Shown one piece after another: positions 8,477 to 63,320 of a stretch of DNA of 64,000 nt. Below the pieces are notes generated by a model that was not told where the DNA came from, did not search any database, and was given only the letters and a program-made list of their open reading frames with translations. Position 1 is the stretch's first letter. The number at the start of each line of letters is the position of its first letter. Location of the stretch: the sequence record MZ956761.1. One strand, given 5' to 3'. Both the position numbers and the translations under genes were made by a program. This DNA comes from a phage.

Positions 8477-8734
8477 ATGAAAACTTTCAAAGAGTTTGCT
8501 ACAAAAACTATTATCACTGAATCTTCTCATGGTATGGAAGTAAAGCTTGGAATGGCTTTAGCTGAAGCTGAGCGTCTTTTCTCTCGTATTAAAGAACTTG
8601 CTGCTGCAGTCGATCCTTCATCTTTTAAAGGAGACCAAACGAAAGTTAAAGCGCTTTTAGCATTATGCTCTGATGCAGGCGAAATCGCTAAGAACGGTTC
8701 TAAGATGAAGAAACGATTAGAAGATTTAAAATAA
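8477..8734 (+). CDS. Internal-protein-like small protein (CTS-like N-terminus MKTFKEF)
   Basis: 85 aa; RBS AGGAAA; N-terminus resembles capsid targeting sequence with I-x-E site (IITE). Confidence 0.5.
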   Translation: MKTFKEFATKTIITESSHGMEVKLGMALAEAERLFSRIKELAAAVDPSSFKGDQTKVKALLALCSDAGEIAKNGSKMKKRLEDLK

Positions 8735-8812: not shown

Positions 8813-9046
8813 ATGAAAACTTATCAAGAATTTATTGCTGAAACTGCTGATGTAAAAGTTGAGTTTATTTATACTGACAAGAAAGATAAAATGGGTGAAA
8901 TGCCTCATGGAGTTCTTCGCGATGCATTAGATAATTTCGGTCAACTCGCTGCAGAAGATTACGGTGATAAAATTGTTGTTACTGGTCCTGCTGCAGTTAT
9001 TGAAAAATGGGCAGCAGAAAATAAATCAATTTTTCGTAAAAAATAA
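8813..9046 (+). CDS. Internal protein (IPI-locus type), CTS MKTYQEFIAE
   Basis: 77 aa from ATG 8813 (RBS GGAGAA); exact T4 internal-protein N-terminal decapeptide. Confidence 0.6.
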   Translation: MKTYQEFIAETADVKVEFIYTDKKDKMGEMPHGVLRDALDNFGQLAAEDYGDKIVVTGPAAVIEKWAAENKSIFRKK

Positions 9047-11816: not shown

Positions 11817-11862
11817 AGTATAAATAAGTATATTAAAACCACGAATTAAAACAGGAAATAAG

Positions 11863-12336
11863 ATGAAATCATATGCTCAATTTTTAAATGAAGCGGTGTT
11901 AAATGAAGCATCTAGCACCGAAATTCAAGCTGTTGCAAAAGCTGCCATTGCCGCGGGTAAATATTCCTATAAGGATGCTTCCGATGAATCACGATTCCAA
12001 TTTGCTCGTGATATGAAAGCCGAAGGATTTACAGGGAATGCAGTTAGTATGGCTTGGAAAAGTTTAGTTGCTACTGGAGCTGCTTTTGCAAAGGCTTCAG
12101 GTAAACCTGCTCCTAAGGCTGACCCTAAAGCAGCACAAGAAAAAAATATTGCTAAAGGAATTATCTCTAGGTATGAAGCAATTCTTAAAGAACTTTTGAT
12201 AATTAAGACCGAAGGCCAGAAACTTGCGCGAGCTCATAGTTTCAAAGATAATCCACATGCTCATGACCTAGAGTATGTTGAAGACATCCAAAAAATTATT
12301 AAAGACCGCATTTGGTCTGCTAAACAAATCAAATAA
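11863..12336 (+). CDS. Hypothetical protein with CTS-like N-terminus (MKSYAQFLNE)
   Basis: 157 aa; RBS AGGAAA; Ala/Lys-rich; N-terminal decapeptide resembles capsid targeting sequence. Confidence 0.5.
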   Translation: MKSYAQFLNEAVLNEASSTEIQAVAKAAIAAGKYSYKDASDESRFQFARDMKAEGFTGNAVSMAWKSLVATGAAFAKASGKPAPKADPKAAQEKNIAKGIISRYEAILKELLIIKTEGQKLARAHSFKDNPHAHDLEYVEDIQKIIKDRIWSAKQIK

Positions 12337-16983: not shown

Positions 16984-17301
16984 ATGAAAACGTATAAAGA
17001 ATTTATTGCAGAATCTGCTGCAGGACAACGTGTAGAAGGCGGTTATATCTGGATTGAACAAGTTGAGCCGCCGAGTCGCACTTCTACGGGTAAATGGAAA
17101 ATCACTGTTGATGGTCCTGGTGGTAAACGTAGGACTCTTAAAGAAATTAACGGGTACTATGAAGAAGCTCTTTCTGACGCGGGTACTTATATGATGCAAA
17201 TCATGATTAAAAACCCAGAAAATCGTTTTGCGGCTAGAGTTTTCCGCCGTATTGGAAATAAGCTTTATGATGCATATTCTAAAAACTTTCCTAAAGAATA
17301 A
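16984..17301 (+). CDS. Internal protein (CTS MKTYKEFIAE)
   Basis: 105 aa; CTS-type N-terminus with I-A-E site; IPII/IPIII locus position. Confidence 0.6.
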   Translation: MKTYKEFIAESAAGQRVEGGYIWIEQVEPPSRTSTGKWKITVDGPGGKRRTLKEINGYYEEALSDAGTYMMQIMIKNPENRFAARVFRRIGNKLYDAYSKNFPKE

Positions 17302-17317
17302 AAATTAAAGGATACAC

Positions 17318-17791
17318 ATGAAAACATATCAAGAATTTATTACTGAAGCAGCTATTAATTCTCAAATTATTGCTGAATCTTTTACTGATCTTTTGAAATT
17401 TAAAAAAGGTCAAAAAATCACTGCTGTATTGGATGATGGTACAGAAGTTGAGATGGATGTACAGGGATATAATTATGCAGTAGATGGAAAACTGTATAAT
17501 AAATCTCATGCTAAATTTGATTCATTTGACGACTTTGTTAATACAGTTGAAGATGAAAAAACTCGTAGATCCATTGCAACTGGTGATGCTAAGGTTCTTA
17601 TGGCACATGGTCATGAACGCATTCGCGCTAAACAGAATAAAATGGGTGAAGATAATTTTGCATTAGTTGGTTATCAATCTGGTAAACAAACTTATGGCTA
17701 TCAGCGTACTGCTACCATGTATAACAAAAATGGTAAAATCGCTTTCGTGAATAGCAAAGGCTCTATTCAGTACGTCAAATCATTCAAATAA
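17318..17791 (+). CDS. Internal protein (CTS MKTYQEFITE)
   Basis: 157 aa; CTS-type N-terminus. Confidence 0.6.
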   Translation: MKTYQEFITEAAINSQIIAESFTDLLKFKKGQKITAVLDDGTEVEMDVQGYNYAVDGKLYNKSHAKFDSFDDFVNTVEDEKTRRSIATGDAKVLMAHGHERIRAKQNKMGEDNFALVGYQSGKQTYGYQRTATMYNKNGKIAFVNSKGSIQYVKSFK

Positions 17792-58667: not shown

Positions 58668-60095
58668 GTGGTAGAAATTATTCTTTCTCATCTCATATTT
58701 GATCAAGCTTATTTTTCAAAAGTTTGGCCATATATGGATTCAGAATATTTTGAAAGTGGTCCAGCTAAAAATACATTCAAATTAATTAAATCTCATGTTA
58801 ATGAGTACCATAGCGTTCCATCTATTAATGCGTTAAATGTTGCATTAGAAAATAGTTCATTTACTGAAACAGAATATTCTGGTGTAAAAACACTTATTTC
58901 AAAACTAGCTGATTCTCCGGAAGACCACAGTTGGTTAATAAAAGAAACAGAAAAATATGTTCAGCAAAGGGCGATGTTTAATGCTACGTCTAAAATAATC
59001 GAAATTCAAACTAATGCTGAGCTTCCTCCGGAAAAACGAAATAAGAAAATGCCGGACGTTGGTGCTATTCCTGACATCATGCGTCAAGCATTATCTATTT
59101 CATTTGATAGCTACGTTGGTCATGATTGGATGGATGACTACGAAGCACGCTGGCTATCTTATATGAATAAAGCTCGTAAAGTTCCATTTAAACTTCGTAT
59201 TTTGAATAAAATTACAAAAGGCGGAGCTGAAACAGGAACACTGAACGTTTTAATGGCTGGTGTTAACGTTGGTAAGTCATTAGGATTGTGTTCATTAGCA
59301 GCAGATTATTTGCAGCTCGGACATAATGTTCTTTACATTTCCATGGAAATGGCAGAAGAAGTTTGTGCTAAGCGTATTGACGCTAATATGCTTGATGTTT
59401 CTCTTGATGACATTGATGATGGGCATATTTCTTACGCTGAGTATAAAGGAAAAATGGAAAAATGGCGTGAGAAATCTACTCTCGGTCGTTTAATCGTTAA
59501 GCAATATCCCACTGGTGGAGCAGACGCTAATACATTTCGATCGCTTTTAAACGAATTGAAGCTCAAGAAGAATTTTGTTCCAACAATCATTATTGTTGAC
59601 TATCTAGGTATTTGTAAATCTTGCCGCATCAGAGTTTATTCAGAAAATAGTTACACAACTGTTAAAGCTATCGCAGAGGAATTGCGTGCTCTGGCTGTTG
59701 AAACCGAAACTGTTCTTTGGACTGCAGCGCAGGTTGGTAAGCAAGCTTGGGATTCTTCTGATGTTAACATGAGCGATATTGCAGAATCTGCCGGTCTTCC
59801 AGCAACAGCCGATTTTATGCTTGCGGTCATTGAAACCGAGGAGCTAGCAGCTGCTGAACAACAACTCATTAAGCAAATCAAATCACGATATGGTGATAAG
59901 AATAAATGGAATAAGTTTTTGATGGGTGTTCAAAAAGGAAATCAGAAATGGGTAGAAATTGAACAAGATTCTACTCCAACTGAAGTAAGTGAAGTAGCAG
60001 GTTCACAGCAGATTCAGGCTGAACAGAATCGCTATCAAAGAAACGAATCTGCTCGAGCCCAGTTAGATGCTTTAGCGAATGAATTAAAATTTTAG
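58668..60095 (+). CDS. 41: Replicative DNA helicase gp41
   Basis: 475 aa, GTG start after AAGGAG; MVEIILSHLIFDQAYF; Walker A GVNVGKS. Confidence 0.95.
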   Translation: MVEIILSHLIFDQAYFSKVWPYMDSEYFESGPAKNTFKLIKSHVNEYHSVPSINALNVALENSSFTETEYSGVKTLISKLADSPEDHSWLIKETEKYVQQRAMFNATSKIIEIQTNAELPPEKRNKKMPDVGAIPDIMRQALSISFDSYVGHDWMDDYEARWLSYMNKARKVPFKLRILNKITKGGAETGTLNVLMAGVNVGKSLGLCSLAADYLQLGHNVLYISMEMAEEVCAKRIDANMLDVSLDDIDDGHISYAEYKGKMEKWREKSTLGRLIVKQYPTGGADANTFRSLLNELKLKKNFVPTIIIVDYLGICKSCRIRVYSENSYTTVKAIAEELRALAVETETVLWTAAQVGKQAWDSSDVNMSDIAESAGLPATADFMLAVIETEELAAAEQQLIKQIKSRYGDKNKWNKFLMGVQKGNQKWVEIEQDSTPTEVSEVAGSQQIQAEQNRYQRNESARAQLDALANELKF

Positions 60096-61160: not shown

Positions 61161-61263
61161 AACTGAAATCACCAATTATTGCAATTTGTCTGTTTGCTTC
61201 TACTAGTGTTTACTTTTGTTGAAAATTGAGATACTATAAATATAAACTACTGAGGAGATTATC

Positions 61264-61557
61264 ATGAAAAAATTTGTTTTTGCTGCAATTTTTGCTTTGG
61301 CTTCTTGTACTGCTCAGCCTGCTATGGCGGGTTATGATAAAGATTTGTGTGAATGGTCTATGACTGCAGATCAGACTGAGGTTGAAACTCAAATTGAAGC
61401 AGATATTATGAATATCGTTGAGCGTGATCGTCCTGAAATGAAAGCTGAAGTGCAAAAACAGCTTAAGTCTGGTGGTGTAATGCAGTATAATTATGTTCTG
61501 TATTGCGATAAAAACTTTAATAATAAAAATATCATCGCTGAAGTGGTAGGTGAGTAA
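61264..61557 (+). CDS. sp: Spackle periplasmic protein
   Basis: 97 aa; signal peptide MKKFVFAAIFALASCTAQPAMA; position between dmd and 61. Confidence 0.65.
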   Translation: MKKFVFAAIFALASCTAQPAMAGYDKDLCEWSMTADQTEVETQIEADIMNIVERDRPEMKAEVQKQLKSGGVMQYNYVLYCDKNFNNKNIIAEVVGE

Positions 61558-61569
61558 TTAGAGGTTAGT

Positions 61570-61926
61570 ATGTATAGTTCTGAATTTTCATATTTAAAAA
61601 TGGAAAAAATTTCATACGATTTTATAGATGAAAAGGTTTATTACAGCTTCCATGAACCACGTTTTAATAGTGAGGTTGGGTTTATTGTAGTAAAAGACAA
61701 TTTCATTTTAAAAATATATTCGGCATTAAAGGATTTTCACTACGAAAATATTAACCTAAAATTTGATAAAGAAAACGTTCGTAATTGTGCAGTAACAATT
61801 ACAGGAAATAAAGGTACATGCGTTATGCTATCTGATGAAATTAATGATTTGCTAAATGATGCCGAAAAGGTTGTTGTTCCATCGATTGATGACCAAATTT
61901 TTAATGCTTTTATGAATAGAGGTTAA
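61570..61926 (+). CDS. Hypothetical protein (61.2 position, AdfA-like by position)
   Basis: 118 aa between sp and gene 61. Confidence 0.45.
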   Translation: MYSSEFSYLKMEKISYDFIDEKVYYSFHEPRFNSEVGFIVVKDNFILKIYSALKDFHYENINLKFDKENVRNCAVTITGNKGTCVMLSDEINDLLNDAEKVVVPSIDDQIFNAFMNRG

Positions 61927-61927
61927 T

Positions 61928-62092
61928 ATGAAAACATATAAAGAATTTATTAAAGAAGATATGGTCGCTGGAGATTCAGGTGGTAATCCTGAAAATATCT
62001 CCACTGGAACAACGTCAGGCGCTGTAGTAAATAAAGGTCCTGAACAGATTCCTAAAAAGAAAAAAGAGGAATCTAAAGAAAAAGAAGAGTAA
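61928..62092 (+). CDS. Small protein with CTS-like N-terminus (MKTYKEFIKE)
   Basis: 54 aa; after I-K-E the rest is Gly/Lys/Glu-rich. Confidence 0.4.
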   Translation: MKTYKEFIKEDMVAGDSGGNPENISTGTTSGAVVNKGPEQIPKKKKEESKEKEE

Positions 62093-62094
62093 AA

Positions 62095-63123
62095 ATGTCA
62101 TCAATACCTTGGATTGATAATGAGTTTGCATACCGTGCATTAGCTCATTTACCTAAATTCGCACAAGTAAATAATAGTTCAACTTTTAAATTACGGTTTA
62201 GATGTCCTGTTTGTGGAGATTCAAAAACCGATCAAAATAAAGCCCGTGGATGGTATTATGGTGATAATAATGAAGGAAATATTCATTGTTATAACTGTAA
62301 CTATCATGCACCAATCGGAATATATTTAAAGGAGTTTGAACCTGATTTATATCGTGAGTATATCTTTGAAATAAGAAAAGAAAAAGGTAAAAGTCGTCCA
62401 GTAGAAAAACCTAAAGAACTTCCTAAACAACCTGAGAAGAAAATAATTAAATCTCTTCCGTCATGCATTAGATTAGATAAACTGGCGGAAGACCATCCAA
62501 TTATAAAATATGTAAAAGCTCGTTGTATTCCAAAGGATAAATGGAAATATCTTTGGTTTACAACTGAATGGCCTAAATTAGTTAATAGCATAGCACCCGG
62601 AACATATAAAAAGGAAATACCTGAGCCTCGTCTTGTTATTCCAATTTATAATGCTAATGGAAAAGCTGAGTCTTTTCAAGGACGTGCATTAAAGAAAGAT
62701 GCTCCTCAAAAATATATCACCATCAAAGCTTATCCCGAGGCAACAAAAATCTATGGAGTCGAACGAGTCAAAGATGGTGATGTATATGTTCTAGAAGGAC
62801 CTATAGATTCACTTTTTATTGAAAATGGTATAGCTATTACGGGTGGTCAATTAGACCTAGAAGTTGTTCCATTTAAAGATAGACGTGTGTGGGTCTTAGA
62901 TAATGAACCTCGTCACCCTGACACTATTAAACGAATGACTAAATTAGTTGATGCAGGAGAAAGGGTTATGTTTTGGGATAAATCTCCCTGGAAATCAAAA
63001 GATGTTAATGATATGATTAGAAAGGAAGGTGCAACCCCTGAACAAATTATGGAATATATGAAAAATAATATTGCCCAAGGGTTGATGGCTAAAATGCGGC
63101 TATCTAAATATGCTAAGATTTAA
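62095..63123 (+). CDS. 61: DNA primase gp61
   Basis: 342 aa; zinc ribbon CPVCGDS...CYNC; TOPRIM-like region. Confidence 0.9.
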   Translation: MSSIPWIDNEFAYRALAHLPKFAQVNNSSTFKLRFRCPVCGDSKTDQNKARGWYYGDNNEGNIHCYNCNYHAPIGIYLKEFEPDLYREYIFEIRKEKGKSRPVEKPKELPKQPEKKIIKSLPSCIRLDKLAEDHPIIKYVKARCIPKDKWKYLWFTTEWPKLVNSIAPGTYKKEIPEPRLVIPIYNANGKAESFQGRALKKDAPQKYITIKAYPEATKIYGVERVKDGDVYVLEGPIDSLFIENGIAITGGQLDLEVVPFKDRRVWVLDNEPRHPDTIKRMTKLVDAGERVMFWDKSPWKSKDVNDMIRKEGATPEQIMEYMKNNIAQGLMAKMRLSKYAKI

Positions 63124-63320
63124 ATTAACCCAACCAAAGCAAATGCTAAATCTACGAATGTATCAAGAGTAATTACTGGAATATTAACACCATGAGCAAT
63201 AGCAATTGGTGATAAAACAAAATTCCAGAGTAAAATTCCTACCGTAGCAGAAATAGTAAAAGCTATACGCTTTTTATTACCTTTGATGGCATTAACAAGT
63301 GCCATTAATTTTTGTACCAT
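63120..63320 (-). CDS. Small membrane protein on the minus strand
   Basis: 66 aa; RBS AAGGAGG 4 nt before ATG; near-consensus late motif AATAAATA upstream; hydrophobic helices. Confidence 0.45.
   Translation of the reverse strand: MVQKLMALVNAIKGNKKRIAFTISATVGILLWNFVLSPIAIAHGVNIPVITLDTFVDLAFALVGLI

Follow-up and report, generated by a model that had tools for sequence, protein, structure and literature searches.

Gene 61.1 of T4-type phages encodes a likely disordered mimic of the gp23 maturation-site segment

Gene 61.1 of phage T4 and its relatives encodes a small protein that is homologous to the gp23 (major capsid protein) segment surrounding the cleavage site of the prohead protease gp21, with the two cleavage motifs in register. 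We characterized the gene in a 64,000-nucleotide stretch of phage DNA (record MZ956761.1, hereafter the window), where it spans 54 codons (Table 1). The reading that we rank first, at a probability of roughly 0.4, is that gp61.1 would be a disordered paralogous copy of the gp23 maturation-site segment that is delivered to the prohead and processed by gp21. The viable readings share a core that appears likely from the comparisons presented here: gp61.1 imitates, in disordered form, the maturation site of gp23, and would for that reason be cut by gp21. The gene itself has been annotated before, whereas the homology that its product shows to gp23 at the cleavage site and N-fist, the architecture of the family, and a conserved late promoter appear not to have been described. 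Indeed, we found no paper that links gp61.1 to the capsid targeting sequence (CTS) or to gp23, and the literature matches for 'gp61.1' or '61.1' together with CTS proved to be annotation tables or a DOI artefact.

Sequence comparison identifies the source of the window as a Tequatrovirus: over bases 61400-62400, Escherichia phage ADUt shows 100% identity, and some 500 further T-even records show 95-99%. The original prediction had placed a 54-residue ORF directly 5' of primase gene 61, and its coordinates and its ATG start codon were verified; a gap of 2 nt separates it from the primase gene. On the basis of the ORF structure and of the gene order around the primase (41, dmd, two small ORFs, sp, 61.2, 61.1, 61, 56), we assign the ORF as the ortholog of T4 gene 61.1 (T4p034, 165 bp, annotated as 'hypothetical'). 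The stop codon of 61.2 falls within the spacer between the Shine-Dalgarno sequence and the ATG of 61.1; with so close a junction, translation of the two genes may be coupled. The product has a computed mass of 5.9 kDa and a computed pI of 5.5, is 96-100% identical to its T-even homologs, and is annotated as a hypothetical protein in ADUt. It matches phrog_1823 over its full length (E = 7e-34, residues 1-54 of 54), and phrog_2086 matches its C-terminal module (E = 2.6e-16). Searches of Pfam and NCBIfam with the 54-residue protein gave no match, in the case of Pfam not even at E = 10, and none of Pfam, NCBIfam, and PHROGs placed it in a functional family or revealed similarity to a family of replication proteins.

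Table 1. Features of the window discussed in the text, in order of position.
Feature	Position	Strand	Remarks
CTS/CTS-like ORF	8477-8734	+	85 aa
CTS/CTS-like ORF	8813-9046	+	77 aa
Late-promoter consensus TATAAATA	11819-11826		Directly precedes the ORF at 11863-12336
ORF with looser CTS-like leader	11863-12336	+	157 aa; phrog_2280 (unknown function); begins MKSYAQFLNE
CTS/CTS-like ORF	16984-17301	+	105 aa; matches a PHROG of unknown function
CTS/CTS-like ORF	17318-17791	+	157 aa
Helicase gene 41	58668-60095		From the ORF table
T4 late-promoter consensus TATAAATA	61235-61242	+	Just upstream of sp; nearest on the + strand, 693 nt upstream of 61.1
Gene 61.2	61570-61926	+	118 aa; phrog_4122
Shine-Dalgarno sequence GAGG	61919-61922	+	5 nt before the 61.1 ATG; read from the sequence
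Gene 61.2 stop codon	61924-61926	+	1 nt before the 61.1 ATG, inside the Shine-Dalgarno-ATG spacer
Gene 61.1 ORF	61928-62092	+	ATG start; 54 codons; product MKTYKEFIKEDMVAGDSGGNPENISTGTTSGAVVNKGPEQIPKKKKEESKEKEE
Leader, MKTYKEFIKE	61928-61957	+	Codons 1-10; of the internal-protein CTS type
(I/L)-x-E motif, Ile8-Lys9-Glu10	61949-61957	+	gp21 prohead protease consensus
gp21 cut (predicted)	between 61957 and 61958	+	After Glu10
Core, DMVAGDSGGNPENISTGTTSGAVVNKGP	61958-62041	+	Codons 11-38; conserved; its homologous stretch is residues 66-93, at the start of mature gp23*
Charged tail, EQIPKKKKEESKEKEE	62042-62089	+	Codons 39-54; Lys-rich tail behind the module in essentially all members
A-rich run	62054-62068		Contains A6 at 62060-62065
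Purine-rich 3' end of tail	62075-62089		Doubles as the gene 61 ribosome-binding region
Gene 61.1 stop codon TAA	62090-62092	+	2 nt before the gene 61 ATG at 62095
Primase gene 61	62095-63123		From the ORF table
Hydrophobic ORF	63120-63320	-	66 aa; between primase gene 61 and dCTPase gene 56
Terminator-like hairpin	63283-63308	+	Overlaps the 5' end of the 66-aa ORF

Two neighbors of the 61.1-61 pair differ from their T4 counterparts. The match of the 61.2 product in the window to the Pfam family AdfA, anti-DarT factor A, is confined to positions 113-211 of the 211 in the profile, its C-terminal half, while 61.2 of T4 measures 627 bp and belongs to phrog_3781; given its short 61.2 and the partial match, this phage may carry a truncated or alternative AdfA-type gene. 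Downstream of the primase, where T4 has dam, lies a minus-strand ORF that is annotated as hypothetical in ADUt.

The homology to gp23 changes the view of what gp61.1 most probably is. In a BLASTP comparison, residues 2-38 align without gaps to residues 57-93 of ADUt gp23 with 16/37 identities (E = 1e-8), and the long-form orthologs described below match gp23 as well (E = 9e-9). When a profile of the family was searched against the 177,635 distinct sequences of the PDB with hmmsearch, the T4 gp23 chains were the sole matches, both as the precursor (residues 58-95, E = 1.4e-5) and as mature gp23* (residues 4-30 of the mature chain, E = 5.6e-4). Comparison of 35 family members with six gp23 N-termini by hhalign returned a probability of 98.1% with E = 6.8e-14 over 40 columns, equivalent to gp23 residues 62-101. 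The leader thereby aligns with the end of the gp23 propeptide (residues 57-65, QAFGSFLTE), and residues 11-36 correspond to gp23* 66-91, which constitute the N-fist (PMC7136217). This element is internal and disordered in the unexpanded head and moves outside upon expansion, after which it touches four subunits and helps to form the Soc binding site (PMC9546572, PMC9958956). AlphaFold2 yields no fold for gp61.1 (pLDDT 61, pTM 0.19), and the module is predicted to be disordered, as is the N-terminal region of gp23 until the capsid expands (PMC9546572). The original prediction had described the body of the protein as rich in Gly, Ser, and Thr. As a statement of composition this holds (37.5% of residues 11-42), but the body is not low-complexity filler, being the most conserved and gp23-homologous part of the protein: positions E10, M12, A14, G15, D16, G19, I24, G27, T28, G31, and N35-E39 are invariant in an alignment of 16 homologs.

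The likeness to gp23 extends over some 40 residues, keeps the register of the cleavage site, and concerns a segment that is disordered when free. The Pfam Gp23 model (PF07068) misses it, without a match at E = 10, because the model begins at gp23 residue 88, and the segment equivalent to gp23 57-93 is the only part of gp23 that is matched. Unlike gp23, gp61.1 thus has neither an HK97-fold body nor most of the 65-residue propeptide, which rules it out as a capsid subunit. The label 'major capsid (domain-containing) protein' that some family members carry in databases is therefore misleading, although it does reflect the similarity to gp23. In phages PMBT1 and PX29, whose own gp23 N-fists are divergent, the 61.1 module is closest to the gp23 of the same phage, with which it shares the lineage-specific features KIASG/TNIGP and SGS.T. 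This pattern, seen in the only two informative lineages, suggests co-evolution of 61.1 with gp23 or gene conversion between them.

Behind the module, the tail is rich in Lys and Glu, as had been predicted, with KKKKEESKEKEE comprising six Lys, five Glu, and one Ser. The A-rich run within its coding sequence is a hotspot for indels, or slippage may occur there. The T6-type homologs P0002 and P0004 (62 residues) have the tail PKKKKRNLKKKKSKNVINTLD, which by a hand-derived comparison is exactly what the loss of one A in this run would give; the shifted frame remains Lys-rich and extends 27 nt into gene 61.

The end of the leader conforms to the specificity of gp21, which is I/LxE (PMC12991175, PMC5694885). 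Glu10 aligns with Glu65 of gp23, the residue that precedes the gp21 cut, and gp21 is accordingly placed, by prediction, to cleave gp61.1 after Glu10, in register with the Glu65-Ala66 bond of gp23. Such a cut would convert the peptide EDMVAGDSGGNPENISTGTTSGAVVNK into a product reading DMVAGDSGG...NK. In 90 distinct sequence contexts, Glu occurs at the gp23 spacing to the G-D motif 77 times, one residue closer nine times, and one residue further once, and is replaced by Asp in the other three; Asp at P1 has been reported to block the processing of IPIII (PMC9026906). The P3 residue, two positions before the Glu, is hydrophobic in 83 of the 87 Glu contexts (48 Leu, 17 Ile, eight Met, eight Phe, and two Val), and hence is one of the consensus residues Leu or Ile in 65/87.

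Other head proteins display related sites. With a slash marking the cleavage junction, AFGSFLTE/A of gp23 and MAKINELLRE/S of gp24 show the same pattern as the CTS, in which positions 4, 7, and 8 are hydrophobic and position 10 is Glu; the gp24 propeptide is, like the leader of gp61.1, exactly 10 residues long. We nevertheless rejected gp24 as a homolog, as it shares just this 10-residue pattern and lacks the module. Both the gp24 propeptide and the small prohead core proteins gp67 and gp68 are short gp21-processed sequences, with the latter two yielding small acidic peptides as precursors of the internal peptides. In contrast to 61.1, they are encoded in the late head operon, by genes that are essential or nearly so, and the proteins have no homology to gp61.1 beyond the motif. 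A stretch of ADUt gp68 (L002:9615-10040, - strand), SINE/DMPLNE, resembles the [IL]-N-E/D-M junction of many 61.1 proteins, probably by coincidence.

The original prediction had allowed that the leader motif might be a chance resemblance. This can now be set aside, given the positions at which the motif occurs, the residues that it retains, and its identity at the DNA level. MKTYKEFIKE is identical to MKTYQEFIAE, the CTS of IPII and IPIII, at 8/10 residues. According to mutagenesis, targeting depends mainly on CTS positions 4 and 7, and processing on positions 8 and 10 (PMC9026906); at all four, gp61.1 (Tyr4, Phe7, Ile8, Glu10) has the same residue as IPIII. In the six frames of the window there are four instances of the strict pattern MK.[YF].[ED]F[ILV].E, each beginning with the first codon of a + strand ORF, as against an expectation of ~4e-8 per ORF start by our own estimate from rough residue frequencies. 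The other three ORFs, starting at 8813, 16984, and 17318, fall into the two clusters of internal-protein genes, and all but the one at 16984 match PHROGs for internal virion proteins. The first 30 nt of 61.1 are identical to those of these three ORFs at 25-27 positions, while the preceding 30 nt are at background level. This degree of identity is also expected from the shared residues and AT-rich codon usage, and we therefore make no claim that the leader arose by recent recombination.

The three strict-pattern ORFs belong to two pairs of adjacent CTS or CTS-like ORFs (Table 1), of whose four members all but the 105-residue one match PHROGs for internal head or virion proteins; the pairs constitute this phage's polymorphic loci of the ipI and ipII/ipIII types. 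The ORF beginning MKSYAQFLNE, a looser CTS-like leader ending in L-N-E, is a candidate for an additional packaged internal protein. Outside the window, UvsW.1 of phage JS98 (75 residues; L013:17309-17536) begins with MKSFKEVIYE, nearly identical to the leader of JS98 gp61.1. As UvsW.1 has no known link to the head, any inference made from the leader alone is weakened.

The leader is not a constant feature of the family. In JS98 gp61.1 it is degraded to MKSFKEVMNE, in which CTS positions 7 and 8 are Val and Met, and the internal proteins of the same phage retain the canonical CTS. An HMM search of 1.84 billion representative sequences recovered 51 family members at E ≤ 1e-3 (50% clustering), with no capsid protein among them, and three architectures can be distinguished: short forms of 50-70 residues, long forms of about 125-165 residues (phrog_2086), and a few longer fusions. 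The ancestral-looking long forms (~155 residues) have no N-terminal CTS and carry instead an N-domain of ~105 residues, which is conserved and partly helical (AlphaFold2 pLDDT 77-89 for residues 10-70) and is followed by the C-terminal module, again predicted to be disordered. Leaders of the aromatic-x-x-aromatic type occur in 17/31 short forms and 3/60 long forms from diverse lineages (Fisher p = 1.4e-7), and it looks as if the CTS-type leader stands in for the missing N-domain in the short forms.

Neither BLASTP nor hhalign detected similarity between the N-domain and the gp23 propeptide, and a Foldseek search of the PDB with the AlphaFold2 model, which is partly confident overall (pLDDT 65), gave no match, so that it remains an orphan domain. 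The domain, which has the motif F..W.A.K.GIID..G, also matches the Sinorhizobium phage phiN3 record H66 (NC_028945.1:184625-184828), in an alignment covering only query residues 9-73, within the N-domain, and a separate PHROG of 197 positions, phrog_18642. From these matches, the N-domain seems to be independent of the gp23-like part. The metagenomic proteins P0037, P0053, and P0058 (149-251 residues) carry, behind the module, a second segment of CTS-like type (M.EV..FK.F.E) and then one more conserved domain, as if read-through had fused 61.1 to a CTS-bearing gene located downstream.

Gene 61.1 is real and under strong purifying selection at the amino-acid level. Across lineages, its conserved 19-codon core shows pN values of 0.07-0.28 against pS values of 0.5-0.86, that is, with synonymous sites near saturation. 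Together with the lack of an Rfam match for the region and its weak RNA folding (z-score -2.1), this indicates that selection acts on the protein, and we rejected an RNA element as the main explanation on the same grounds. It is also very improbable that 61.1 has no protein function and serves merely as a coupling or leader ORF for translation of the primase, or is a decaying fragment that arose when the 5' end of an ip gene recombined with gene 23. This reading would fit the overlap of its 3' end with the ribosome-binding region of gene 61, the tolerance of a frameshift in the tail of the T6-type variant, the dispensability of the gene in the laboratory, and the slight tendency towards RNA structure. 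The selection data contradict it, however, and the lack of an Rfam match, the 51 representatives at 50% clustering, and the conservation of the protein in distant genera where 26-64 nt separate 61.1 from 61 also count against it.

The position of the gene leads one to consider a role in replication. In six of seven lineages, and in short and long forms alike, 61.1 is located directly 5' of the primase gene (ADUt, JS98, and TG1 of the Tevenvirinae, fHyAci03, D484, and PX29), an arrangement found in Tevenvirinae, Lazarusvirus, Angelvirus, and a KVP40-like vibriophage; in the Slopekvirus PMBT1, two small ORFs intervene, and in the Angelvirus PX29, 61.1 is the sole gene between 41 and 61. The gene sits in the early/middle replication cluster, and the T4 61.1 RNA has been classed as early (PMC9697503, Table S2). 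A replication accessory factor acting with gp61 and gp41, for example through binding of DNA by the conserved Lys-rich tail, with the likeness to gp23 being an evolutionary leftover, would account for this synteny and timing. We consider such a primosome role, for which synteny is the argument, improbable, as the conserved part of the protein is the gp23-like module rather than the tail alone and there is no resemblance to replication protein families. Nor did CRISPRi-ART knockdown of T4 61.1 carry a fitness cost (score -0.84, 'Not Fit'), although the same was true for the T4 primase (PMC11879866 supplement).

The promoters likewise speak against a primosome factor, for which late promoters directly upstream would be unexpected. 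The T4 late-promoter consensus TATAAATA is located 21-35 nt upstream of the 61.1 ATG in 10/20 related loci, where these are the sole + strand copies in the 70 kb that the loci comprise, and five further loci have NATAAATA at -20 to -42. These motifs make it very probable that, in many lineages, 61.1 is expressed late and at the same time as the head genes. The phage of the window and T4 both lack a late-promoter motif close to the gene. The nearest copy in the window, just upstream of sp, is not followed by any terminator-like site before 61.1, and is a possible source of late read-through transcripts covering sp-61.2-61.1-61.

In the model that we favor, gp61.1 consists of a leader resembling the end of a propeptide (here in its CTS form), an (I/L)-x-E site, an N-fist, and a Lys-rich tail. 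The leader, the gp23-like module, or both would direct gp61.1 to the prohead's scaffolding core, as happens for the internal proteins and gp23. There, gp21 would cut after Glu10, in register with Glu65 of gp23, to release a 44-residue, 4.6-kDa N-fist-like peptide with a charged tail, which might stay with the DNA or the capsid lattice or diffuse out. We rank this prohead model first because the leader looks functional and is of a type enriched among short forms, because the cleavage motif is in register with that of gp23, and because of the late promoters; the homology to gp23, the predicted disorder, and the similarity of the PMBT1 and PX29 modules to their own gp23 favor it further. Several observations count against it. 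gp61.1 was not found among the entries covered of the T4 infection proteome tables or in a T4 virion mass-spectrometry study, although small peptides are easily missed, and near-atomic maps of the T4 capsid have no extra N-fist-like peptide assigned (PMC9546572, PMC7136217). The early T4 RNA, the place of the gene in the replication cluster, the lack of a proximal late promoter here and in T4, the altered JS98 leader, the long forms without a CTS, and the three cases of Asp at P1 point in the same direction.

Comparison with the known internal proteins illustrates both sides. Like gp61.1, IPI, IPII, IPIII, and the other CTS-bearing internal proteins are encoded by small genes, begin with a leader of the form MKTY.EFI.E that ends in an (I/L)-x-E site for gp21, and vary in sequence beyond it. 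However, they have a folded basic body, whereas gp61.1 has a 28-residue copy of the gp23 N-fist and a charged tail; they are encoded in the ip loci rather than in the replication cluster; and they do not, as the 61.1 orthologs of other genera do, exchange the leader for a domain of ~105 residues. For gp61.1, packaging is what we propose.

The same features would also suit a mimic or decoy that stays in the cytoplasm and, as a pseudo-substrate or competitor, ties up free gp21 activity, or imitates nascent or unassembled gp23, and thereby either blunts an immune response sensing gp21 proteolysis or the major capsid protein, or tunes gp23/gp22 assembly. We regard this as the main alternative, possible but on the unlikely side. 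Its attraction lies in the finding that cleavage of a disordered I/LxE loop by T4 gp21 activates the CD-NTases of CBASS (PMC12991175), which implies that gp21 activity is accessible to soluble proteins. Those activation loops resemble gp61.1 in presenting the motif within a disordered segment, but they are host-encoded, form part of an enzyme, and are not homologous to gp61.1, which would be their viral counterpart under the decoy hypothesis only. Likewise, gp23 triggers CmdTAC and Lit. A decoy would be well served by a disordered protein in which, to either side of the cut, the sequence is the best natural match to the context of a gp21 site, which often has a late promoter, and which co-varies with the gp23 of its own phage. 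It is also in keeping with the T-even neighborhood, where the counter-defence genes dmd, sp, and the AdfA-like 61.2 adjoin 61.1, and with the dispensability of the gene in the CRISPRi-ART host, a laboratory strain without defence systems. On the other hand, a decoy would have no need of the CTS-type leader, which is nonetheless enriched in the short forms. The gol region by which gp23 activates Lit, which we take to span approximately residues 93-122, lies in the first quarter of gp23 and mostly downstream of the copied segment, and we found nothing in the literature on gp61.1 as an anti-defence protein. The probability that is left over goes to an explanation outside the four readings considered here.

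A bolder proposal, which we put forward as a doubtful one, is that gp61.1 might be a free-standing copy of the N-fist released by a protease, that is, a viral self-mimic peptide with one of two roles. Inside proheads, it could occupy or regulate the binding sites for the N-fist or the scaffold on the gp23 lattice, for example where there is no neighboring N-fist; alternatively, it could act as a decoy substrate or ligand and so shield the phage from immune systems that detect the major capsid protein or cleavage by gp21. If true, this would mean that the CTS of the internal proteins itself mimics the end of the gp23 propeptide, which would explain how 10 residues can target a protein to the prohead core.

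T4 is the reference system for head assembly, and yet its gene 61.1 lacks an assigned function. The analysis corrects the misleading 'major capsid protein' labels in the family, and makes for a surprising case that is directly testable in the best-studied phage. It opens the questions of what gp21 recognizes beyond L/I-x-E, of why a CTS of 10 residues suffices, given the pattern common to the propeptide ends of gp23 and gp24, and of whether phages mimic segments of their own capsid to control assembly or to evade immunity that senses the capsid or the protease. As a natural minimal CTS cargo, gp61.1 is also a candidate that could serve in T4 packaging vectors.
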